A stretch of DNA of 45,742 nucleotides. Origin: Candidatus Woesearchaeota archaeon (GTDB taxonomy: Archaea > Nanobdellota > Nanobdellia > Pacearchaeales > GW2011-AR1). The notes beneath the pieces were generated by a model. It worked only from the letters and a program-made list of their open reading frames with translations, was not told where the DNA came from and searched no databases. Both the position numbers and the translations under genes were made by a program. Within the stretch, counting starts at the first letter, position 1. Every line of letters starts with the position of its first letter. Location of the stretch: the NCBI GenBank assembly GCA_964533515.1, contig CAZHMB010000003.1:1-45742 (forward strand), read 5' to 3'. This document shows positions 8,131 to 45,222 of this stretch, piece after piece.

Positions 8131-8859
8131 ATGAATAACATAGAAGAGTTGCAATCAGTAGGATTAAACAAGTGGGAATCGCAGACATATTTAGCCTTAC
8201 TCGAATTAGGCGAAACAAAAACAGGGGAGCTATCTAAAAAAGCAGAAGTTCCTCAATCAAAAATATATCCTGTTTTGGATTCTCTTATAAAAAAAGGACT
8301 CGTGAGCTATATCGTGAAAGGTCAGATAAAGTTTTTTCGGGCTTCGGATTACAAAAGGATTCTAACCCTATTCAAAGAAAAAGAAGAGAGGGTTCGAAAC
8401 TTATTAAAAAATATTCCTATTAAACAAGAGGAGAGAGATTCTGTTGAGATATTCCAGGGATTAAAAGCAATTCGTATAATGCTTTCGAGTTTAATTGAAG
8501 ACGCAAAGAAAGGAGAGGACTTGTATGGATTTTCCACTGGAGAGACCTCAGAAAACGAAGAAATTTCAGATTTTTATCATTGGTGGGGCGAAAGAAAGAG
8601 GATTGCTAAGTTAAAAGATCATTTATTATTGTCTGAAAAAAATAGGAAAGAATTTGAAAATTCAATTATCCCAGAAGACAAATCTTATGTAAAAAAGAAA
8701 ACACATTATTCGAAAATCTCTTTCCCAGGAGATGTTGCTATATTTAGAGAAAACGTTATTTTATTTAATTATGAAAGCATTCCCTCCGCAATCCTAATAA
8801 AAAGTAAAGAGATCTCCAGGCAGTATAAAGATTTTTTTCTGAGTATCCAGAAAAACTAA
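8131..8859 (+). CDS. TrmB-family winged-helix transcriptional regulator
   Basis: N-terminal LNKWESQTYLALLELGETKTGELSKKAEVPQSKIYPVLDSLIKKGLVS matches the TrmB wHTH consensus. Divergent from the 6341..7997 orphan operon. Confidence 0.8.
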   Translation: MNNIEELQSVGLNKWESQTYLALLELGETKTGELSKKAEVPQSKIYPVLDSLIKKGLVSYIVKGQIKFFRASDYKRILTLFKEKEERVRNLLKNIPIKQEERDSVEIFQGLKAIRIMLSSLIEDAKKGEDLYGFSTGETSENEEISDFYHWWGERKRIAKLKDHLLLSEKNRKEFENSIIPEDKSYVKKKTHYSKISFPGDVAIFRENVILFNYESIPSAILIKSKEISRQYKDFFLSIQKN

Positions 8860-36327: not shown

Positions 36328-36972
36328 ATGGTGATAAAAATAATGAAAAACTTTTTTTCAAGAATATTCTCAAACTTATTTAAAAATAATCGTGAAATAA
36401 AACTCGGTTTCTACGGCCCCCCAAATGCCGGAAAGACAAGCTTAGCAAACCATATTTGCAAAGATTTCACCGGAGAAGAAATGGGAAGTGTGAGCAAAAT
36501 CCCACACGAAACGAGAAATGTACAGTTCAAAGAAAAAGTTGAGATTGAATACAAAGGGAAAACCCTAATGTTCAAAATGGTTGACACACCGGGAATTGCA
36601 ACAAAAATAGATTACGAAGAATTCTTAAAATACAAAGTAAAAAAGAAGGAAGCTAAAAAGAGGGCCAAAGAGGCAACGCAAGGAGTAGTCGAGAGTATAA
36701 AATGGCTAGAGGACATGGATTTAGTTGTTGTGGTTCTTGATGCAACAGAAAATCCTTACAACCAGGTTAATATAACAATAATCGGAAATCTGCAAGCAAG
36801 AAAAATCCCTGTTTTAATTATAGCAAACAAAATTGACTTAAAAAAAGCAGACATAAAGAAAATAGAGTCAGCATTCCCAGAGTATGACACAATTGGAATA
36901 AGTGCAAAGACTGGAAAAAATTTAGAAGAGTTCTACGAATCAGTTTTTAAACTTTCAAAAAAGATAAGATAA
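36328..36972 (+). CDS. Small P-loop GTPase
   Basis: G1 GPPNAGKTS, G3 DTPG, G4 NKID, G5 SAK. Confidence 0.85.
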   Translation: MVIKIMKNFFSRIFSNLFKNNREIKLGFYGPPNAGKTSLANHICKDFTGEEMGSVSKIPHETRNVQFKEKVEIEYKGKTLMFKMVDTPGIATKIDYEEFLKYKVKKKEAKKRAKEATQGVVESIKWLEDMDLVVVVLDATENPYNQVNITIIGNLQARKIPVLIIANKIDLKKADIKKIESAFPEYDTIGISAKTGKNLEEFYESVFKLSKKIR

Positions 36973-37016
36973 AAAACATTAAAAACCCCTAAATATTATA
37001 AATAAAAAAGAGGAAG

Positions 37017-37433
37017 ATGGTAAAAAAGATAAATTCAAAAAAGAAGCTAGGTAAGCTAAAAGGATTTTCTATCCAGTTCATGCCTTATTATGAAATTCGG
37101 GAGTTGGGTAGCAACGACAGAATAAGAAAAGTCTTGGAAATAGTTCTAGGAAATAATATTTTAATTCTTCAGGGAAAACTTCAACCAGAAGAAGAAACGA
37201 GATTGATCGGGGATACGATGGCAATGATTGGCCATGTGAAAAGCTTCAAAGGAATTGAACTAGCAGTTATTGATAATTCAAAAAAAGAAACCTTTATTGA
37301 AAGAGTTAAAAAATCCGTTCTAGATACCTTGGCTGGAGGAGATCTCGGAGCAGTTACAATTATCGGCCCAGCAAGCATCATTAAAGAGATAAAGCGAAAT
37401 CCAAAGAAAATTGAACTTATGTTGAAAGGATAA
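37017..37433 (+). CDS. Conserved archaeal protein usually paired with this GTPase (DUF2073-like, from memory)
   Basis: Co-oriented, 44 nt after the GTPase gene. The family assignment is recalled, not searched. Confidence 0.5.
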   Translation: MVKKINSKKKLGKLKGFSIQFMPYYEIRELGSNDRIRKVLEIVLGNNILILQGKLQPEEETRLIGDTMAMIGHVKSFKGIELAVIDNSKKETFIERVKKSVLDTLAGGDLGAVTIIGPASIIKEIKRNPKKIELMLKG

Positions 37434-37434
37434 G

Positions 37435-38028
37435 TTACTCTTTAACTTGTAATAATTTATTTTGTTGATAAAACATTTCTATACTATCTGGAATTCCTTG
37501 AAGATTATTTTGTAACCACCAGGGAGGATTTTTATCAAAATCTCTTTCTCTTCCTTTATATTTAATTTTCCCTCTATAAATCATTCTCGGAAGATGAAAA
37601 GGAACTCTATGTGGCCCGAGTAAATCCCCATTTTTTTCAGGCTGAACATGAAGCAATCCCTTTCTTGCCCGAAAATTTAATCCCAAATCCAAAACAACAG
37701 CCCTTCTAATAGCAACATCATGAATGTGATTATTTGGTGTTTCTTGAACATCATAACTTAGTGCCGCATCAACATTAGAAGGCGCCGTATCAAAAATATC
37801 ATCAAATTCGATTAACCAACGAAGGGTTTTTCTATCAGATTGTAAAAAACAAGTATATGCTCTTTGATAAACTTGTAACGCATCAGATCTTTCAATAACC
37901 TCTCCTCCCCATTGCCAAGCAATTTTCCAATTTCCTTCTCCAAACTCATTATTCCATTGTGAGAAAAGCCCATCTCTGCTCTGACCAAAATATCCTGGCC
38001 TATCAATCGCTCTCCATTCCATCAACAA
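37435..38028 (-). CDS. Orphan Trp/Arg-rich protein (197 aa)
   Basis: Clean ORF (EWRAIDRPGYFGQSRDGLFSQWNNEFGEGNWKIAWQWGG...). No family recognised. Confidence 0.6.
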   Translation of the reverse strand: MLMEWRAIDRPGYFGQSRDGLFSQWNNEFGEGNWKIAWQWGGEVIERSDALQVYQRAYTCFLQSDRKTLRWLIEFDDIFDTAPSNVDAALSYDVQETPNNHIHDVAIRRAVVLDLGLNFRARKGLLHVQPEKNGDLLGPHRVPFHLPRMIYRGKIKYKGRERDFDKNPPWWLQNNLQGIPDSIEMFYQQNKLLQVKE

Positions 38029-38075
38029 GAATAAGAAAAAGACTTTTTAATTATTTATATCCTAAAATTCAACTT

Positions 38076-38456
38076 TCATTCCTCTTTCTTAGGAAGCACT
38101 AACGAAGTCAGGTCGATGATATATTTTCCTTCTTCCATTTTATATATTAAAGGTCGATTTTTGCTAAACAAATTTGCAAGATCAATTTCATATCTTCCAC
38201 TTCCAGTTGCCCTTATAGATTCGAGATCCAAGATAACGGGAGCATCCTCTTTCTCGATGCCAGCCATCTCACGGATATCCATTTCAACTTGCTTCTTATC
38301 TTCTACTTCAAGTTCAACAGGCTCTTTCTTAACTTGCTCAAGTTGCTCATCCCTAATATAAAAGAAAAAATGGCCCTGGCAATCTTTACACCCTTCGATT
38401 AATTCCCTACTTCCAGCAGGAATAATTCTTTTACAATGTACACATTGGTGTGGCAT
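38076..38456 (-). CDS. Zn-ribbon protein (DUF2072-like, from memory)
   Basis: MPHQCVHCKRIIPAGSRELIEGCKDCQGHFFFY gives CxxC...CxxC at the N-terminus. Confidence 0.6.
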   Translation of the reverse strand: MPHQCVHCKRIIPAGSRELIEGCKDCQGHFFFYIRDEQLEQVKKEPVELEVEDKKQVEMDIREMAGIEKEDAPVILDLESIRATGSGRYEIDLANLFSKNRPLIYKMEEGKYIIDLTSLVLPKKEE

Positions 38457-38532: not shown

Positions 38533-39834
38533 ATGACCAAAACAACTGAAAAAATATACAAAGAAATTCTAAAAGAGATAACCCCAAACAAAGAGGCCCA
38601 AGAAAAGATAGCTTTCATATTAAAGGATTTCCAAAGAAAATTAAAAAACCAAATCTCAAAATTGAATATTGAAGCTGAAATTTTTATTGGGGGAAGCTAT
38701 GCTAAGAAAACTTTAATACAAAAAGAGAAATATGATGTGGATATTTTTATAAGATTTAATGAAAAATATCCCAATCAAGAAATCTCAAAATTAACAAAAA
38801 ATATCTTAACAAACTTAAAACCCAAACCAAACCTAAGAATTTTGCACGGCTCAAGAGATTACTTCCAAATATCAGCAACAAAAAATATAGAATTAGAAAT
38901 ATTACCTGTGAAAAAATCCCCTTCTCCAGAAAAAGCTGAAAATATAACAGACCTCTCATACAGCCATGTAAGTTATGTAAATAAAAAAGCAAAAGCAAAA
39001 AGAGTTTTAGATGAAATAAAAATCTCAAAAGCCTTCACTCACGCCTGCAATTGCTACGGTGCCGAATCATACATCCAAGGTTTTTCAGGATATGCTCTGG
39101 AACTTTTAATTTTGCATTATAAATCCTTTGAAAAATTTCTTAGAGAAACAATAAAAGTAAAAACAGGGAAACAATTAATAATTGATATTGAAAAACAATT
39201 CAAAAGACCTTCAGAAGTTTTGCTCGAATTAAACTCTTCAAAACTTCAATCCCCAATAATCTTGGTTGATCCTACTTACAAGAAAAGAAATGTCCTTGCT
39301 GCCCTCTCCCAAGAAACTTTTGAAAAATTCCAGACCCACGCAAGAAATTTCTTAAAAAAACCCTCTATAAATTTCTTCCACAAAACACAAATAAATTTAG
39401 AAAAAGAAAAAACCAAAGCAGAAAAAAACAAAAACCAATTCCTTATTCTTGAAATCCAAACAGCCAAACAACCGGGAGACATAGCAGGAACAAAACTTTT
39501 GAAATTTTACAAACATTTGAACCAAGAAATTTCAAAAGTTTTTGACATTAAAAATTCCGGATTTCTTTACAACGAAAAACAATCTGCAAGAATATTCCTT
39601 TCTGTCAAACCAAAAAAGCAAATTGTTTTCCAAGGCCCAAATTTGAAAGAAAAACACCACGTCAAAAAATTTAAGAAAATTCATAAAAAGACTTTAATAA
39701 AGAACAACACAATTTACGCAAAAGAAATTCCAATTCAAAGTTTAAAGGAATTTCTAAACGTTTGGACAAAAAACAAAGCCAACAAAAGAAAAATTCGAGA
39801 AATGTATGTCAAAAATTTTAAGATTGTTGAATAA
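38533..39834 (+). CDS. cca: Archaeal class I CCA-adding tRNA nucleotidyltransferase
   Basis: The GGSYAKKTLIQKEKYDVDIFIRF catalytic motif (GS...DxD), a length of 433 aa and the tail-domain layout all fit. Confidence 0.88.
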   Translation: MTKTTEKIYKEILKEITPNKEAQEKIAFILKDFQRKLKNQISKLNIEAEIFIGGSYAKKTLIQKEKYDVDIFIRFNEKYPNQEISKLTKNILTNLKPKPNLRILHGSRDYFQISATKNIELEILPVKKSPSPEKAENITDLSYSHVSYVNKKAKAKRVLDEIKISKAFTHACNCYGAESYIQGFSGYALELLILHYKSFEKFLRETIKVKTGKQLIIDIEKQFKRPSEVLLELNSSKLQSPIILVDPTYKKRNVLAALSQETFEKFQTHARNFLKKPSINFFHKTQINLEKEKTKAEKNKNQFLILEIQTAKQPGDIAGTKLLKFYKHLNQEISKVFDIKNSGFLYNEKQSARIFLSVKPKKQIVFQGPNLKEKHHVKKFKKIHKKTLIKNNTIYAKEIPIQSLKEFLNVWTKNKANKRKIREMYVKNFKIVE

Positions 39835-39836
39835 AG

Positions 39837-40052
39837 TTATTTATCGCTCCTTCTAAATGTAATTTTTTTAGGAATCACCCCAAGTTTAGAGCCATGTTCA
39901 TGAGTTAAAAAATAAACTTGCATAATACGTCTTCGATCTTCCTTTAAATCCCCTGTTGTTCTTTTACGCAACACCCCAGGAAGTTCCCCCCCATCTGCAT
40001 AGGGCTGATAATCATGTCTTTCTTCAGACCCCGATGAATCACTTTCACCCAT
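39837..40052 (-). CDS. Operon gene 9: 71-aa charged orphan protein
   Basis: The ATG lies 2 nt after the TrmB stop, with GGGGAGG inside the last TrmB codons. Translation begins MGESDSSGSEERHDYQPYADGGELPGVLRKRTTGDLKEDRRR... Confidence 0.5.
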   Translation of the reverse strand: MGESDSSGSEERHDYQPYADGGELPGVLRKRTTGDLKEDRRRIMQVYFLTHEHGSKLGVIPKKITFRRSDK

Positions 40053-40054
40053 CC

Positions 40055-40879
40055 TTATTTCCTCCCCTTTACCTTTTTATCTTTTTTGGCTTTCTCAGCA
40101 TCTGCAACTTTCATTGCTCCTTCAAACATGTCGGCAAAAGCTGTCGAGAAAAAATCTGAATTCAACCAAACAGCAATATCATCGTTGTCCGCGTCTTTCG
40201 CTAAGTAGAATAAAATTTCCCTTCGATCTATGATAAAAAACTTTGCTTTGATTTCTGTTTTCTTCGCTTTAACTCCAAGTCTCTCGCCTATTCTTTGAAC
40301 CATTTCTTCCTCGCCATTAAGGACAACAACAACTTTCATTCCCGCTTTTTGCAATCTGTCAATTGTTTCTTTAAACAAACTTACTCTTCGATTTATGTCC
40401 TCAACGTGCGTACAGATTATAACTTCCTTTTGCGCATTTTCCAAAATTTCTCTAAGATAATGCGAAATGTTCGACTTTCCTTTCAGCGAAGCTGAAACAT
40501 CTTCTCTCTTCACAGGCTCAATTCCACCCTTATACAATTTATCAAGTTGAACAAACTCATCAGACTCTTTAATCTTCGAAAGTCTCTCAACTCTATCATG
40601 CGCATCCTTCTGAGCATTCCGTTTCATCTTCTCAATTATTGTCTCAGGTTTAAGTCCAAGATATTTCACTGGCTTACCAAGTTTGATTATTGCAAATCCT
40701 CTTTTCTCAAGAGATTCAAGAACATCATAAGTTCTAGACCTCGGAACTCCAGAAATGCTCGCAACCTCACCAGCTGATGCAACTCCTTTAGACAATAAAG
40801 CTAACCAAACCTTCGTCTCATAAATATTAAGATTGAAATAATCTTTTACTCTTTCAATTAATTCTTTTTGTACTATCAT
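40055..40879 (-). CDS. Operon gene 8: TrmB-family transcriptional regulator
   Basis: YETKVWLALLSKGVASAGEVASISGVPRSRTYDVLESLEKRGF is the TrmB wHTH. ATGA overlap with gene 7. Confidence 0.8.
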   Translation of the reverse strand: MIVQKELIERVKDYFNLNIYETKVWLALLSKGVASAGEVASISGVPRSRTYDVLESLEKRGFAIIKLGKPVKYLGLKPETIIEKMKRNAQKDAHDRVERLSKIKESDEFVQLDKLYKGGIEPVKREDVSASLKGKSNISHYLREILENAQKEVIICTHVEDINRRVSLFKETIDRLQKAGMKVVVVLNGEEEMVQRIGERLGVKAKKTEIKAKFFIIDRREILFYLAKDADNDDIAVWLNSDFFSTAFADMFEGAMKVADAEKAKKDKKVKGRK

Positions 40880-41187
40880 TGTGTTGCTCCTTCAGCTTTT
40901 AACTTTCTTAATCGTTTTTCCTTTTTCATCCTTTCTGAAATTCTCTTATTAACTTGGTAAGCCATAATAGCAGCAACAGGAATAGCTACAGCATACCCCA
41001 ATACTGTAAAAAGGGCACTAGTCATCTCCCGAGAAGTAATTTCCTTTGTTCTTTCCCAATCATGTCTTAACACTTCCGCCTGACCATACTCTTTAACATT
41101 TCTTATCCCATCTCGAAAATCATAAGGATATTTATACATTGTAATTCTTTTTCTCCCAACATCTTGTCTTCCTTCTTTTTCTGTCAT
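40876..41187 (-). CDS. Operon gene 7: 103-aa protein with C-terminal-half TM helix and basic tail
   Basis: MTEKEGRQ...; TM helix ALFTVLGYAVAIPVAAIMAY; tail KKEKRLRKLK. Confidence 0.55.
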   Translation of the reverse strand: MTEKEGRQDVGRKRITMYKYPYDFRDGIRNVKEYGQAEVLRHDWERTKEITSREMTSALFTVLGYAVAIPVAAIMAYQVNKRISERMKKEKRLRKLKAEGATQ

Positions 41188-41188
41188 T

Positions 41189-41404
41189 TTAATCTCGACC
41201 CCCCATTTCTATGACACTATCTCCTTCATAAACAACATCTCCAGAAGGTTTTGCATAAAATTCTGAAGTTAAAAAAGAGACAACTTTCCCGGTTTTAATA
41301 TCCCTGAAATCAGTTCTATTTTTATTTGTAGTAGGTCCTCTTAAAAAATATTCTTTCCCCCCCATTCTAGGGCAGCTTATCCTTATTCCTTCTTCTCCCG
41401 TCAT
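41189..41404 (-). CDS. Operon gene 6: 71-aa soluble beta-rich orphan
   Basis: MTGEEGIRISCPRMGGKEYFLRGPTTNKNRTDFRDIKTGKVVSF...EMGGRD*. It has the standard junction on both sides. Confidence 0.5.
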   Translation of the reverse strand: MTGEEGIRISCPRMGGKEYFLRGPTTNKNRTDFRDIKTGKVVSFLTSEFYAKPSGDVVYEGDSVIEMGGRD

Positions 41405-41405
41405 T

Positions 41406-41935
41406 TTATTTCTGACCCCCAGTAATAATTAATCCATATTTCTCTTTTACTTCTCTTTGATCAAGATTTAACTCAGAAGTTAGATATCTTAATTTTGCTG
41501 CAGTGCTAGCTTGCAAATTTTCTTGCTCTTTCACAGATCTACGATTTAATCTTGCTAATTCTGCTTCTGCTGCGGATAAAGCAAGAACGAAATCTCCCTC
41601 TAAACCCCTAAGACGCCTTCCATTAATATCATAAACTGCCGGAACTGGATTTGAAACAAAATAATTAGTAGCCCCACCATTAGTTACAACTTTGAACTCA
41701 TTAGTTCCATCTCCATCTCGATCCACTCCAGAGATATACTTTGCTCTCGCGCTGGCTTTTCCCTCACTCTTTCCAACCTCAAGACCTTGATCATACCCAT
41801 GATTAATCATAGCTGTTAGCCCTGCCCCCCCCCCCCCAATATTACTAAACCCCCAAGAACACCGGTCACAATCCGACTAGCGATTCCTGAGGCATTGTTT
41901 CTCCCATCTAATACTTGTGAAGCTTTATTTCTCAT
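41406..41935 (-). pseudogene. Operon gene 5: TM-anchored DxDxDG paralog split by a G13 tract (intact 176 aa if G14)
   Basis: The 5' fragment 41816..41935 reads MRNKASQVLDGRNNASGIASRIVTGVLGGLVILGGGGQG*. The 3' fragment 41406..41810 is in the other frame. One extra G yields ...VILGGGGAGLTAMINHGY... The core motif is GVDRDGDGTNEFKVVTNGGATNYFV. Confidence 0.6.
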
Positions 41936-41936
41936 T

Positions 41937-42296
41937 TTATTTTAACCCCATTGTCTGTTTTCTTGATCCGTCTATTCCCTCTGGATTTATAAGAGTATAT
42001 CTTGGAGAATTGTCTTGTTCACGCGAGCAGGTTAAACCTTCTCCCAAATAGTTTGTTCCTGAAAATAAATAAGAATTTGTTTCTCCTTCTCTTACGACAA
42101 CATATTCTGTTCCTGCACCTCTGCTCATCTGAACATTTCTCAAAAATACTTGTTCTGCTTTTTCTCCTTCAGATCTAACTCCAGCCCCAGATTCTCTAGG
42201 ACTTTTAAAATGGGATATGCCAAACAGAGTAGCCACCATAGCCAATGCGAATATTGTATTATTTCTTGATATCTTTCTTTCATTTTCTTTTGTCAT
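41937..42296 (-). CDS. Operon gene 4: 119-aa TM-anchored paralog (degenerate loop)
   Basis: Internal ATG at 42296 with the standard junction. MTKENERKISRNNTIFALAMVATLFGISHF..., then SRGAGTEYVVVREGETNSYLF. Confidence 0.6.
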   Translation of the reverse strand: MTKENERKISRNNTIFALAMVATLFGISHFKSPRESGAGVRSEGEKAEQVFLRNVQMSRGAGTEYVVVREGETNSYLFSGTNYLGEGLTCSREQDNSPRYTLINPEGIDGSRKQTMGLK

Positions 42297-42297
42297 T

Positions 42298-42471
42298 TTA
42301 TTCTCGACCCCCTTTAACTTTTCCAACACTTGCATCAGCACCAAGATATCTCTCTAAAGTATCATCAGAACCCGTATCTCCAACAGTTCTTTCACCTGCA
42401 CAATCATATTCCGTTTTACCTACAGCTTTTCTTATTCCTTCCACTATTTCCTTAGATTTATCTTTATCCAT
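42298..42471 (-). CDS. Operon gene 3: unlisted 57-aa soluble orphan
   Basis: Hand translation: MDKDKSKEIVEGIRKAVGKTEYDCAGERTVGDTGSDDTLERYLGADASVGKVKGGRE*. It fills the gap between genes 2 and 4 exactly. Confidence 0.5.
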   Translation of the reverse strand: MDKDKSKEIVEGIRKAVGKTEYDCAGERTVGDTGSDDTLERYLGADASVGKVKGGRE

Positions 42472-42480
42472 TTAAAATCC

Positions 42481-42963
42481 TTAATGACTAAAAAGCTCCT
42501 CAGCTCTTCCTCTAGCTTTTTCATATTTAATTGCTGAACCAGATTTATTCCCTACTGATTGACCTTCCAATCTCGCCACATCATTAGAACGAGCTTCGCC
42601 TAAAGGCAAATATTCTCTCTGGTCAGGAACCAGCTGTCCCCACGTCAAATCTGCAACAGATCTTTCTCCCCTATAAACAAAAGTCTTCACATCACCGTTT
42701 CCTTGTAAAAAAGATACATCATTTGTTCCATCTTGATCAACATCGTATAATCCAAAATCTACAACTCTAGAACCTTCGGTTCCGTCCTTAAACCCTTTTC
42801 TATAACTCTTCCTACTATTGTTTTCTCCTATTGCAATAGTAAACAAACAACTAATTAATCCAATTGCAGCCGTAAGAACACTAATTCCCTTCTGTCTTCT
42901 AAGAAGAGATGCTGTTGGCGCTTCTTCTCCTTTCACTGTTTTTTCAGGTTTATCTTGTGTCAT
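42481..42963 (-). CDS. Operon gene 2: 160-aa TM-anchored DxDxDG paralog with prepilin-like N-terminus
   Basis: Internal ATG at 42963 with the standard junction. LLRRQKG-ISVLTAAIGLISCLFTIAIG, then YDVDQDGTNDVSFLQGNGDVKTFVY. Confidence 0.6.
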   Translation of the reverse strand: MTQDKPEKTVKGEEAPTASLLRRQKGISVLTAAIGLISCLFTIAIGENNSRKSYRKGFKDGTEGSRVVDFGLYDVDQDGTNDVSFLQGNGDVKTFVYRGERSVADLTWGQLVPDQREYLPLGEARSNDVARLEGQSVGNKSGSAIKYEKARGRAEELFSH

Positions 42964-42964
42964 T

Positions 42965-43192
42965 TTATTTACAACCTCTCCCTTGACTATTATCTCGACA
43001 ACGACCAATCCAACCATCATCAAAAGATTGCGGACCAAGTTGTCCAGGATTTAAAAGAACGCAATGATACTCCTCACAAGGACCAACCATCCCCTCTTCA
43101 GCAACTCTCTTAAGATGTTCAAAACTATCCCTTGATGTTGGGCCACCACCATCTGGATTAAATTCTTGATTGTATAAATCATCTTGTGTCAT
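42965..43192 (-). CDS. Operon gene 1: 75-aa Cys-containing soluble orphan
   Basis: Internal ATG at 43192. MTQDDLYNQEFNPDGGGPTSRDSFEHLKRVAEEGMVGPCEEYHCVLLNPG...RCRDNSQGRGCK*. It shares AAAATGACACAAGAT with the start of gene 2. Confidence 0.5.
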   Translation of the reverse strand: MTQDDLYNQEFNPDGGGPTSRDSFEHLKRVAEEGMVGPCEEYHCVLLNPGQLGPQSFDDGWIGRCRDNSQGRGCK

Positions 43193-43220: not shown

Positions 43221-43228
43221 TTTATAAA
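43221..43228 (-). promoter_or_regulatory. Palindromic TATA box (TTTATAAA) for the minus-strand operon
   Basis: Lies 29 to 36 nt upstream of the ATG at 43192. This is the usual archaeal spacing for short-leader or leaderless mRNAs. Confidence 0.4.
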
Positions 43229-43274: not shown

Positions 43275-43283
43275 TTTATAAAA
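43275..43283 (+). promoter_or_regulatory. TATA box (TTTATAAAA) for the divergent 43307 gene
   Basis: Lies 24 to 32 nt upstream of the ATG at 43307. Confidence 0.4.
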
Positions 43284-43306: not shown

Positions 43307-43702
43307 ATGAAAAAATCAACCGTTGGTTTCGCCAATACAAAACGAGAAGAAGATTTTTACCAAGATCATATTGGAGAATGGGTAAATCTTTTTCCAAAAG
43401 ATAAGGATGCGCTAGCAACTTCGGGAGTTATAACAAGATATTCTAGATCAGACCACTCTGTAATTCTCAATCCTTTTCTGGGTATACATTACTCTTCAGA
43501 CGGAGGTGCTGAATGGCAAATTCTAAGGAAAGCTACTGCAGTTGATCTGCACACTGTCGGAAGGCCTGAAGAAACAGATGAAGGAAACGCCGAGGGAAGA
43601 GCTATAAATTACAACAAACAATTAAGAATAAATCGCTTAGAGAGAAATGCAAAACTAGAAAAACTAGAAGCAGAAGCCAAAAAAGATTCACCTTCTCAAT
43701 AA
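43307..43702 (+). CDS. Orphan protein (131 aa), divergent from the operon
   Basis: Clean ORF with a beta-rich N-half (GEWVNLFPKDKDALATSGVITRYSRSDHSVILNPF) and a coiled-coil C-half. No family recognised. Confidence 0.55.
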   Translation: MKKSTVGFANTKREEDFYQDHIGEWVNLFPKDKDALATSGVITRYSRSDHSVILNPFLGIHYSSDGGAEWQILRKATAVDLHTVGRPEETDEGNAEGRAINYNKQLRINRLERNAKLEKLEAEAKKDSPSQ

Positions 43703-43709
43703 ACTTTAT

Positions 43710-44708
43710 CTATCCAAAAGCCAACTTCCAAAGAATCCCAAGAATTATGGAAACAAAAATTCCAGTGGTAACAAAGGGCATGGCTGGATAACTTTCATTC
43801 TTCTTTTTCTTTGATTCGAAAAACAGATAGATTAAAGCGGATGTGGCCCCAAGCAGAACTAACAGCGAGGGTATCAAACCTAAAATCCTATAGACAACCC
43901 CCATCGAGATTACTGAGAAGACAATATCGCCACCCCCAAGAACAGCAATATTAACATTCAACTTGTTTTTCTTAATAACATTCGCCGGAATAACCTTCTT
44001 ATCTTTATATTTCAAACGAAGCGCTTTAATCTTTTCTTTAACTTTTCTTGAAGCATAAGGAACCAAGAAACCTCCAAAAACGCCAACAGACTCAATCTGA
44101 TATGAAGCCATTTTCTGCATAATACCCGTATGCCAAACCGCCCACATATCATAAGCCGAAATCAATATCAAAATAACAACAAGCGAATAAATATTCAACA
44201 ATGGAACAAAGATTAACGCTATTCCCGGATAGATAAACAATTCAGTTAAATTATGAACAAGCATATTTCTTTTAAAGATTTTCCAAATTCCAAAAACCAA
44301 AGCAATTCCTAGAGGAATTATAATTCTCCAAAAGTTCTGGAAATCAAAAAAGAATTTTTGAAAAGCATACAAACTCAAGAACAAAGCAAAAGTTGCAACA
44401 ATAAAAAACCAACCCCTGAGAAAAAAGTCGGCTTTAATTTTATTCAAAACTAAGATCAAGACTATTGCAATAATAAAAGCGAAAATCAAATTGAAAATCA
44501 TAGCAGCAGCGCCCCCGGCATCTTCAATATCTGGAGATTCAATAAACATAAAATCAGGATTCATTGATTCCACAACACTTCCGTTCACAATTTCAGAAAC
44601 ATGCAACGGATCAATAGAAATAACAAACAACCCGATTAACAATGTCAAAATAAACATCCCAAGAATAATTGAATAAACTTTTACTTTCTTATCCATCTCT
44701 TTTTTCAT
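43710..44708 (-). CDS. Presenilin / signal-peptide-peptidase homolog (A22 GxGD intramembrane aspartyl protease)
   Basis: YD motif in ISAYDMWAVW, GxGD motif in AVLGGGDIVFS, PAL-like YPAMPF. About 9 TM helices. Confidence 0.8.
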   Translation of the reverse strand: MKKEMDKKVKVYSIILGMFILTLLIGLFVISIDPLHVSEIVNGSVVESMNPDFMFIESPDIEDAGGAAAMIFNLIFAFIIAIVLILVLNKIKADFFLRGWFFIVATFALFLSLYAFQKFFFDFQNFWRIIIPLGIALVFGIWKIFKRNMLVHNLTELFIYPGIALIFVPLLNIYSLVVILILISAYDMWAVWHTGIMQKMASYQIESVGVFGGFLVPYASRKVKEKIKALRLKYKDKKVIPANVIKKNKLNVNIAVLGGGDIVFSVISMGVVYRILGLIPSLLVLLGATSALIYLFFESKKKKNESYPAMPFVTTGIFVSIILGILWKLAFG

Positions 44709-44836: not shown

Positions 44837-45222
44837 ATGGAAAAGATATTATGGCTCGAAGCTGAAACAGGATGTTGTTCTGGGATAAAAATGGTTTTAG
44901 AAAGAGAAGGGGGGGGGTTGTTAAGATCGCCCAAAATGTAGAAACCGCACTCAATTGTTTAGACACTTCAAGATATGGGTTTGTTATCGCTGAACCTTAT
45001 CATAGTTGTGTTGAGAAAATTCCAGAACGAATGGCCCTGATTCAATCCTTTCTAGAAAAGGCAACTGCAAAATCCCCAACAATGTTATTAACTTCTCTTA
45101 ATGAGGAATGGCTTGCAGATTATGGTTTGGAAAAAGGGGCACATTATCATCATTATATGCAAAAGCCAACCCCCTCAGAGAAAATTATCTCAAGAATAGG
45201 CCAAATACTTTCAGGACAATAA
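44837..45222 (+). pseudogene. Atypical CheY-like receiver-domain protein split by a G9 tract (intact if G10)
   Basis: ATG 44837 gives MEKILWLEAETGCCSGIKMVLEREGGG, then an out-of-frame stop at 44941. The listed ORF 44872..45222 carries ...VVKIAQNVETALNCLDTSRYGFVIAEPYH...MLLTSL...YMQKPTPSEKIISRIGQIL. REC landmarks are present (beta1 KILWLEAE, acceptor position E in VIAEP, T in LLTS, the KP pair), but the acidic residues are substituted. Confidence 0.55.

Follow-up and report, generated by a model that had tools for sequence, protein, structure and literature searches.

We analysed an array of nine small genes on contig CAZHMB010000003.1 (assembly GCA_964533515.1) of a Candidatus Woesearchaeota archaeon. 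The window, that is, the whole stretch of DNA examined, comprises 45,742 nt, and the array fills positions 39837–43192 of its minus strand, where nine consecutive open reading frames (ORFs), namely g1 to g7, a TrmB-family gene and g9, are separated, in that order, by 1, 9, 1, 1, 1, 1, −4 and 2 nt. A first-pass annotation had recorded the same head-to-tail arrangement, with gaps of −4 to +9 nt, and had read it as a self-contained orphan operon with its own regulator, an idea that the analysis below corrects. On the whole, what that annotation saw in the sequence holds up well, and about half of its interpretation does. Related loci carry the working labels L###, and proteins retrieved with a g2 plus g5 profile are labelled P####.

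A compact array of small genes

The first gene, g1 (42965–43192), encodes a soluble 75-aa protein with four Cys residues (C-x4-C ... C-x8-C). It is followed by g2 (42481–42963), a predicted 160-aa type-II membrane protein with a transmembrane (TM) helix at residues 27–45, a DVDQDGTND loop and a C-terminal helix; by g3 (42298–42471), an acidic, soluble protein of 57 aa; and by g4 (41937–42296), a 119-aa protein with a weakly hydrophobic N-terminal segment. The next gene, g5 (41406–41935), specifies a Gly-rich TM helix, one FG-GAP/VCBS-like blade with the loop DRDGDGTNE and a helix of about 54 residues, and is read as two pieces of 39 and 134 aa, g5a (41816–41935) and g5b (41406–41810), owing to a G13 homopolymer within its TM-coding part. 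Downstream lie g6 (41189–41404), encoding a soluble protein of 71 aa, and g7 (40876–41187), whose 103-aa product combines an N-terminal domain carrying an NV(K/R)EYG motif with a TM helix at residues 58–76 and a basic tail. The −4 junction between g7 and the 274-aa TrmBL2-like TrmB-family gene (40055–40879) is the ATGA overlap noted earlier. Finally, g9 (39837–40052) encodes a charged 71-aa protein and ends 2 nt from the stop codon of a convergent gene for a CCA-adding enzyme.

ORFs of at least 50 aa fill 96% of this interval on a single strand. When the same sequence was simulated 1000 times under a first-order Markov model, they filled 7% on average and never more than 31%. When the six frames were compared by codon log-odds, with 30 long genes from the window as the training set, the annotated frame ranked first for every ORF, with scores from 0.20 (g1) to 0.59 (g3) against 0.13–0.43 for the training genes, and GC1 exceeded GC3 in all array ORFs. 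The best-scoring frames, the host-like codon scores and the excess of GC1 over GC3 together argue that the ORFs are real genes with native codon usage, supporting the earlier view of co-directional small genes in a DPANN genome. Contigs of the same strain are 99.7–100% identical to the window and offer no informative substitutions inside the array.

An origin of the array from a provirus or mobile element was rejected on account of its native codon usage and the lack of an integrase and of viral relatives: no integrase occurs among the Pfam families listed for the window (25 of 39 listed), and a search of viral contigs with the g5-family profile returned no relatives.

A conserved TrmB gene between fixed neighbors

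The proposed assignment of the regulator to the TrmB family is borne out by matches to PF01978 (1e-17, 64.2 bits, cut-off 25.6) and to PF11495 (31.1 bits, cut-off 22.2), the latter confined to the N-terminal half of the profile (positions 6–131 of 233). Among four NCBIfam TrmB models, the best match is TrmBL2 (NF041141; 91.2 bits, 7.5e-26), at a score that does not reach the equivalog cut-off of 530 bits. TrmBL2 is listed among the archaeal nucleoid-associated proteins (PMC6136690). The protein described here resembles TrmBL2 of Thermococcales, a global repressor, in length (274 versus 264 aa), in combining the TrmB winged helix-turn-helix (HTH) with only the N-terminal part of the effector domain, and in its high conservation across the lineage; it differs in scoring far under the equivalog cut-off and in being encoded by cistron 8 of a small-protein operon.

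A scan of GTDB species representatives identified 448 loci encoding a TrmB relative. Across the best 80 of these 448, nearly all labelled as Pacearchaeota, Woesearchaeota or Nanoarchaeota metagenome-assembled genomes, identity to the window's TrmB ranges from 58 to 78%. A metagenome scan for closer relatives added 479 loci, the best 80 of which are 56–66% identical, so that the closest metagenomic TrmB is only 66% identical. Among the best 80 genome loci, a gene for a presenilin/SPP-type intramembrane protease (hereafter SPP) lies upstream on the same strand in 66, and the gene for the CCA-adding enzyme lies downstream, in convergent orientation, in 67. The corresponding boundaries in the window are the SPP gene at 43710–44708 (minus strand), whose product has the motifs YD (AYDMW), GGGD and PAM, and the gene for the CCA-adding tRNA nucleotidyltransferase at 38533–39834 (plus strand). 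The SPP assignment is close to threshold for PF06550 (22.7 bits, cut-off 23.9) and far from it for PSH (28 bits, cut-off 125); the orthologs in L168 and L173, with 40–46% identity, carry PF06550 in precomputed annotation.

The order SPP-TrmB-CCA is fixed in hundreds of genomes whatever the intervening slots hold. Because TrmB keeps the same two neighbors while the slot genes differ, it is not a regulator dedicated to this array, as had been supposed, and, judged by sequence and synteny, it is best regarded as a conserved TrmBL2-like housekeeping gene.

Several observations on the surroundings stand on their own. A second TrmB-type winged-helix gene (8131–8859, plus strand) encodes 242 aa and is 43% identical to the array TrmB over the HTH. 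Within the SPP gene, positions 44472–44532 contain eight substitutions in 60 nt relative to the same-species contigs L081 and L082, seven of them synonymous and one changing A67 to G, while the remaining 11 kb are almost identical; the cluster suggests a short patch of recombination or a strain marker. At 36328–38456, a GTPase gene (MMR_HSR1) is accompanied by genes for OapB and OapC, which Pfam names 'origin-associated proteins', and a replication origin may therefore be close by; the cumulative GC skew does not turn anywhere within the window.

Hypervariable slots on both sides of TrmB

Across the 80 genome loci, the SPP-to-TrmB gap measures 0.08–2.75 kb and the TrmB-to-CCA gap 0.02–5 kb. 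The SPP-to-TrmB gap of the window, which holds g1 to g7, is 2.8 kb and thus as large as the largest found; g9 lies in the downstream slot. In relatives, these slots contain chains of small same-strand ORFs of about 60–250 aa, and in 54 of the 80 loci an ORF of at least 60 aa ends no more than 30 nt, mostly no more than 10 nt, from the trmB start. Longer arrays occur in L019, with six ORFs downstream, and in L034, with about a dozen over 5 kb.

The content of the slots is highly variable. We compared 249 ORFs all against all by BLAST, comprising 240 slot ORFs of at least 50 aa and the nine window proteins, and 181 of them were singletons at E < 1e-4. Even L001, with a TrmB 78% identical to that of the window, has neighbors different from those described here. 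When 160 TrmB-orthologous loci were searched by tblastn and phmmer, g1 to g6 and g9 had no relative, and g7 alone did. By these comparisons, g1 to g7 and g9 occupy two hypervariable slots flanking TrmB.

The relatives of g7 are a 94-aa protein in L048 and L121 (5.6e-8) and a 73-aa protein in L013 and L093, all encoded directly downstream of TrmB and sharing the NV(K/R)EYG motif, a TM helix and a basic tail. On this sequence evidence, g7 is assigned to a second small TrmB-flanking family, present in two other lineages. Scans of all small proteins with Pfam, PHROGs and PADLOC, and of g1, g2, g4, g5 and g7 with NCBIfam, found no family, and a word-indexed search of 5.8 billion proteins with g5, g2 and g7 returned the queries alone. 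We infer that the products of g1, g3, g6 and g9 stay in the cytoplasm as strain-specific passengers or partners.

A further family, of 250–280 aa, is encoded at positions 684–1526 of L169, right after a g5-like gene, and by an ORF of 252 aa right before trmB in L055; judged by eye, its members have in common a C-terminal GNRxLYT...GRVVxVN motif.

Transcription and gene junctions

A TATA-like box, TTTATAAA, is present at 43221–43228 on the minus strand, 36 nt before the g1 ATG, where the first-pass annotation had placed it, and most other genes of the window show a similar spacing. Within the array, no further TATA-like box stands at a suitable position. Given this box and the lack of a well-placed internal one, it would be the putative sole promoter, and a single transcript across nine cistrons, with trmB as cistron 8, is plausible. 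A second copy of TTTATAAA at 43275–43282 faces a divergent ORF (43307–43702, plus strand, 131 aa) located between SPP and the array. This ORF has one weak positional relative, in L023 (27% identity over 70 aa, E 4e-4 to 6e-4); L168 and L173 have an unrelated opposite-strand ORF at the same position, and the one in L168 resembles signal peptidase I.

A repeat finder retrieved three 48-nt junction copies with 63–73% identity and four 27-nt copies, and the pattern GGGGT..stop-A-ATG occurs four times in the window, always in the array, and five times in 1.23 Mb of related loci. The repeated junction module that had been proposed is thus real as far as its copies go, but its features are lineage-wide and not special to this array. 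When the 60 nt upstream of trmB were aligned for 78 orthologous loci, the positions right before the ATG read T (69%), A (96%), A (93%), A (89%) and A (100%), and G was enriched at −8 to −15 with or without an upstream ORF ending there; the context ATAAAATG precedes trmB in most of these loci. The modal junction in slot arrays is a 1-nt gap (76 of 193), followed by the −4 overlap, and slot ORFs begin most often with Met-Thr (ATGAC), in 22% of cases versus 5% of other genes in the window.

The module consists of a G-rich Shine-Dalgarno (SD) sequence in terminal Gly codons, an A-rich spacer holding TAA, and ATG. Since the combination of SD, ATAAA and ATG precedes trmB regardless of any upstream ORF, it is the ordinary initiation context of the lineage, and the extra likeness among three of the junctions may reflect local duplication or convergence. 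We also considered the junction repeats as integron-like or cassette recombination sites and rejected this because the same context precedes trmB where no ORF lies upstream; in addition, no integrase occurs among the Pfam families listed for the window, and the g5-family profile had no viral relatives.

A rare single-blade family comprising g5 and g2

The first-pass annotation had grouped g2, g4 and g5 as three paralogs with a DxDxDG calcium-loop signature. The relationship between g2 and g5 stands: their Smith-Waterman score is 64, shuffled sequences score 31 ± 5, and none of 2000 shuffles reaches the real score. Both carry the loop, DVDQDGTNDVSFL in g2 (DVDQDGTND) and DRDGDGTNEFKVV in g5 (DRDGDGTNE), followed in each by a hydrophobic beta strand, and the loop region also matches over 20 nt at the DNA level. 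Loops of this type are infrequent, occurring in 13 of 2259 ORFs from the related loci and the window. The third member had to be dropped. Shuffle tests gave p = 0.06 for g4 against g5 and p = 0.4 for g2 against g4, the family hidden Markov model (HMM) matched g4 only at E = 6, and neither a DxDxDG loop nor a clear TM helix was found in g4, whose hydrophobic segment reaches 1.37 in a 19-residue Kyte-Doolittle window, below the TM threshold.

With a profile built from the g2 ectodomain and g5b, an hmmsearch across 1.84 billion representative proteins returned 22 at E ≤ 1e-3. Five are small, full-length g5-like matches: P0005 (183 aa, E 1.1e-10), P0007 (171 aa, 3.9e-7), P0009 (147 aa, 5.2e-7), P0016 (143 aa, 4.6e-5) and P0020 (153 aa, 1.7e-4). 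The others are multi-repeat proteins, including P0004, P0008, P0010, P0013 and P0023, that match in 4–8 stretches each over profile positions 13–58 (E 3e-12 to 1e-3), and all five multi-repeat proteins that were checked contain FG-GAP or FG-GAP_3 above the Pfam cut-offs. In contrast, g2, g5 and the five homologs have one matched stretch per chain and no tandem blades. P0020 approaches the FG-GAP models at 18.3 and 18.6 bits (cut-offs 22.1 and 26.9).

The five homologs and g5 align end to end and share the Gly-rich TM helix, a D-x-N/D-x-DGTN(E/D) loop followed by strands, the motifs F-V-x-N-P-x-P-x-E-Y-D and G-D-Y, a long helix and, often, D-K-Y near the end. Against these homologs, phmmer scores are 30–59 bits for g5 and 14–19 bits for g2. 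Sequence comparison thus places g5 and its diverged paralog g2 in a rare family without a Pfam or NCBIfam model, with a predicted layout of a short cytoplasmic N-terminus, a TM helix, a single FG-GAP/VCBS-type blade outside the cell and a long helix.

The VCBS/FG-GAP supercluster is defined by the DxDxDG cation-binding motif (PMC9218822). The g5 family resembles these propellers in its D-x-D/N-x-D/N-G-x-x-D/E loop followed by hydrophobic strands, in its predicted extracytoplasmic location and in the matches of the g2 plus g5 profile to single blades, with E-values down to 3e-12. However, FG-GAP/VCBS propellers of the integrin-alpha type contain 4–8 or more tandem blades, whereas g2 and g5 have one per chain, preceded by a TM anchor and followed by a helix of about 54 residues, and the NPxPxEYD, GDY and DKY motifs are not part of FG-GAP.

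An AlphaFold2 (AF2) model of g5b based on a 7-sequence alignment (pLDDT 76.7) shows a short helix, five strands forming one beta meander (residues 23–29, 38–43, 48–53, 66–68 and 74–76) and a 54-residue helix (77–130); the single-sequence model of g2 was uninformative (pLDDT 40). The g5 model is compatible with one blade plus an oligomerization helix, short of proof. Among PDB sequences, a profile search retrieved only a weak match (E 0.13), to FG-GAP-like repeats in the secreted esterase 8w20. Literature searches combining Pacearchaeota with TrmB and DPANN with FG-GAP found nothing relevant.

The G13 tract in g5

The G13 tract that was reported to split g5 lies at 41825–41837, and a change to G14 or G11 would fuse g5a and g5b into a protein of 176 or 175 aa. 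The homologs encode the TM helix and ectodomain as a single ORF, and in four of five homologs the alignment with the G14-fused g5 continues past the frame break as far as the TM helix. Together, these findings indicate that g5 is a single gene interrupted by the G13 tract. An independent assembly, L081, from a slightly different strain (10 single-nucleotide polymorphisms in 11.4 kb) reads GGGGGTGGGGGGG, so that the tract is 13 nt long in both assemblies that span it (G13 and G5TG7). G or C runs of at least 9 nt are absent from 1.27 Mb of related loci except for a contig-end artefact, and the g5 homologs have no such tract. From these observations, the frame break is probably real in these populations. 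The gene may be a recent pseudogene, may stand in the phase-OFF state, or may be rescued through −1 slippage on the G run.

Two further contigs break off 7–23 nt short of the tract, and one more begins close to a G7 run within g6. We considered the breaks at the tract as a sign of length heterogeneity and rejected this since another contig starts near the G7 run, which suggests that contig breaks by poly-G are technical. The public contigs of this organism that end or start by G runs are L082, L083 and L176; the G7 run of g6 is at 41357–41363, and a G9 run lies at 44909–44917 in an ORF at 44872–45222 (plus strand).

Phase-variable homopolymer-tract genes of host-associated bacteria have been surveyed (PMC2831843). 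In common with such contingency genes, g5 has a long G tract in its 5' part and a putatively surface-exposed product, and a +1 change would restore the frame. It differs in that both spanning assemblies have 13 nt, one of them interrupted by a T, with no length polymorphism observed, and in that its homologs do not have the tract.

Genomic contexts of the g5 homologs

The contexts of the five g5 homologs were retrieved by exact protein look-up and are given here as gene orders, with protein sizes in aa and the g5 homolog in square brackets. L164 reads 86 - 69 - [183] - 107 - TrmB - 106 - 105 - 87 - 131 - 100 - 138, on one strand and with gaps mostly of 1 nt. L168 reads SPP - (159 aa, opposite strand) - 94 - [171] - TrmB - 78 - CCA, and the P0009 locus 87 - [147] - 126 - 165 - 67 - TrmB - 93 - 155. 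L173 reads SPP - (132 aa, opposite strand) - [153] - 128 up to the contig end, and the 128-aa neighbor is a lipobox protein with the loop DIDGDGLVD. For the fifth homolog, in L169 (82 - [143] - 281), the contigs are too short to judge. Thus, in all four informative contexts, which belong to more distant DPANN lineages, the g5 homolog lies in the SPP-TrmB slot, upstream of TrmB, downstream of SPP, or both, which confirms co-localization for this gene. Relative to the TrmB of the window, those of L164 and L168 show 46–47% identity; between the two, identity is 75%. The slot ORFs of the homolog loci, the g5-like gene excepted, match neither the genes of the window nor each other.

Anchored proteins with a DxDxDG-like loop recur in TrmB slots beyond the g5 family. 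Ten small ORFs of 104–152 aa combine an N-terminal lipobox or hydrophobic anchor with such a loop, among them L034 3530–3943, L046 5538–5996, L051 4871–5248, L068 3520–3834, L149 586–978 and 2589–2975, L153 76–474, L132 1446–1823 and L173 2782–3168. Those of L068 and L149 are clear homologs (3e-11). As homologs of the g5 family these proteins were not accepted, because hhalign aligned only the 22-residue loop, at a probability of 63%.

About 2 kb upstream of the g5-like/TrmB array in L164, positions 215–1251 encode a nucleotidyltransferase-like protein and a HEPN protein, a toxin-antitoxin-like pair, which fits a neighborhood that gathers accessory genes.

A proposed strain-variable envelope module and its alternatives

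We lean, with a little more than even confidence, towards reading the array as a co-translated, strain-variable envelope module around single-blade Ca-binding proteins, housed in the two slots beside TrmB on the chromosome of a Pacearchaeota/Woesearchaeota-type DPANN archaeon. According to this reading, a single TATA promoter upstream of g1 would drive all nine cistrons, TrmB being made as cistron 8, and the junctions, with a G-rich SD in the last Gly codons followed by TAA, A and ATG, would couple the translation of neighboring genes. The products of g2, g5, g7 and perhaps g4 would go to the membrane, where g2 and g5 would present Ca2+-stabilized blades outside the cell and probably oligomerize via the long helix, creating a binding surface for envelope or host contact.

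Several results weigh against this interpretation. No FG-GAP Pfam model (PF01839, PF13517) matched g2 or g5 at E ≤ 1, and Foldseek found nothing significant for the g5 model in the PDB (best E 0.58). The g5 frame is broken in both spanning assemblies, and the gene may be dead in this strain. The orphan status claimed for the array fails for g5, g2 and g7, for which homologs were found, but stands for g1, g3, g4, g6 and g9, which had no relative in any search made. The slot ORFs of relatives are mostly soluble, with a TM-like segment in 16 of 220. Moreover, the g5 family is absent from the 160 closer TrmB loci (E < 1e-3). Because these loci do not have the family, and its homologs come from a clade with TrmB proteins 46–47% identical to that of the window, the linkage of the family to the slot is patchy and could result from repeated accessory deposition in a permissive slot.

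This last point leads to an alternative that we regard as unlikely, though by no means negligible, namely, that the slots are permissive, well-expressed sinks gathering unrelated small genes that share a transcript and no common function, having been acquired, duplicated or born de novo, with the g5 family as a recurrent passenger. The predominance of singletons among the compared ORFs, the different neighbors of the closely related TrmB in L001, the fact that L164 and L168 have the g5-like gene alone in common, the five of nine window genes without relatives, slot sizes from 0.02 to 5 kb and the HEPN/nucleotidyltransferase pair near the L164 array all agree with such a sink. On the other hand, the four-out-of-four occurrence of the g5 family in the slot emerged from an unbiased search of 1.84 billion proteins, and so strong a preference for one location is better explained by a functional or expression link than by neutral deposition; the uniform host-like codon usage and uniform junctions speak against recent foreign pickup, and the duplication of g2 and g5 within the operon suggests selection on the module.

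A bolder version of the envelope module, which we consider improbable, is that g2 and g5 are single-blade subunits, held by their TM helices and joined through the long C-terminal helices, of a Ca2+-dependent, propeller-like binding ring on the cell surface, either homo- or hetero-oligomeric, with g5 switched by slippage at the G13 tract, through DNA phase variation or −1 ribosomal or transcriptional slippage. Natural partial propellers known so far are soluble lectins whose chains each carry at least two blades. Oligomeric propellers from fragments, both designed proteins and natural partial-propeller lectins, establish that a toroid can be built from one blade or a few (PMC6805158, PMC4735018), and the g5 family would add to them a natural chain with one blade and a likely oligomerization helix.

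The proximity of SPP raises another scenario, highly improbable in our view, in which this protease would cut anchors of the g2, g4 and g5 type after an extracellular Ca2+ or ligand signal, freeing short cytoplasmic peptides or altering surface display, with feedback on the co-expressed TrmB. Proteases of the SPP type (A22 family) need type-II (N-in) TM substrates, and the basic residues before the TM helices of g2 and g5 predict, by the positive-inside rule, an N-in, C-out topology; SPP also lies on the same strand upstream in 66 of the 80 loci and near the g5 homologs of L168 and L173. Yet the adjacency of SPP and TrmB is kept in genomes whose slot has no TM protein, and the synteny is therefore independent of such substrates; nor are the N-terminal tails conserved among members of the g5 family.

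It is very unlikely that these proteins act, in the manner of bacterial PliI or XAC2610-type lipoproteins, as membrane-tethered inhibitors or immunity factors that guard the envelope against lytic enzymes of competitors or the host. The recurrence of lipobox proteins with DxDxDG loops (104–152 aa) in TrmB slots would suit such a role, as would weak XAC2610_fam matches (14–15 bits) on P0007 and an L149 protein and the appearance of PliI among weak Pfam and fold matches. These matches are far under the cut-off (35 bits for XAC2610_fam) and cover the Ca loop only, as does the short hhalign alignment of the lipobox group with the g5 family, and no toxin or hydrolase partner was seen in the array.

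Least credible of all is the suggestion that g2 carries a class III prepilin signal and belongs to a set of minor pilins or an adhesion filament: K-G does stand directly before a 20-residue hydrophobic segment in g2 (RRQKG|ISVL), but the motif is missing from g5, P0005, P0007, P0009, P0016 and P0020, a 26-residue leader is long for such a signal, no pilin family was matched in the Pfam or NCBIfam scans, and no pilus ATPase, platform protein or A24 peptidase occurs among the listed Pfam families (25 of 39) of the 38 other ORFs of the window.

Implications

With a TM anchor joined to one FG-GAP/VCBS blade and a long helix, g5 and its relatives define a family for which Pfam and NCBIfam have no model, and proteins that consist of a single free blade matter for the structure and evolution of propellers because these have been argued to keep arising from single blades (PMC9218822). 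If the ring arrangement and the switch were true, they would give an extant case of the 'single blade' stage that has been postulated in the evolution of propellers, as well as a contingency switch in a DPANN archaeon.

More generally, fast-turnover arrays of small genes flank a conserved TrmBL2-like gene across a DPANN lineage. For organisms that are not culturable alone, the TrmB slots offer a defined place to seek strain-specific genes for envelope functions and host interaction.

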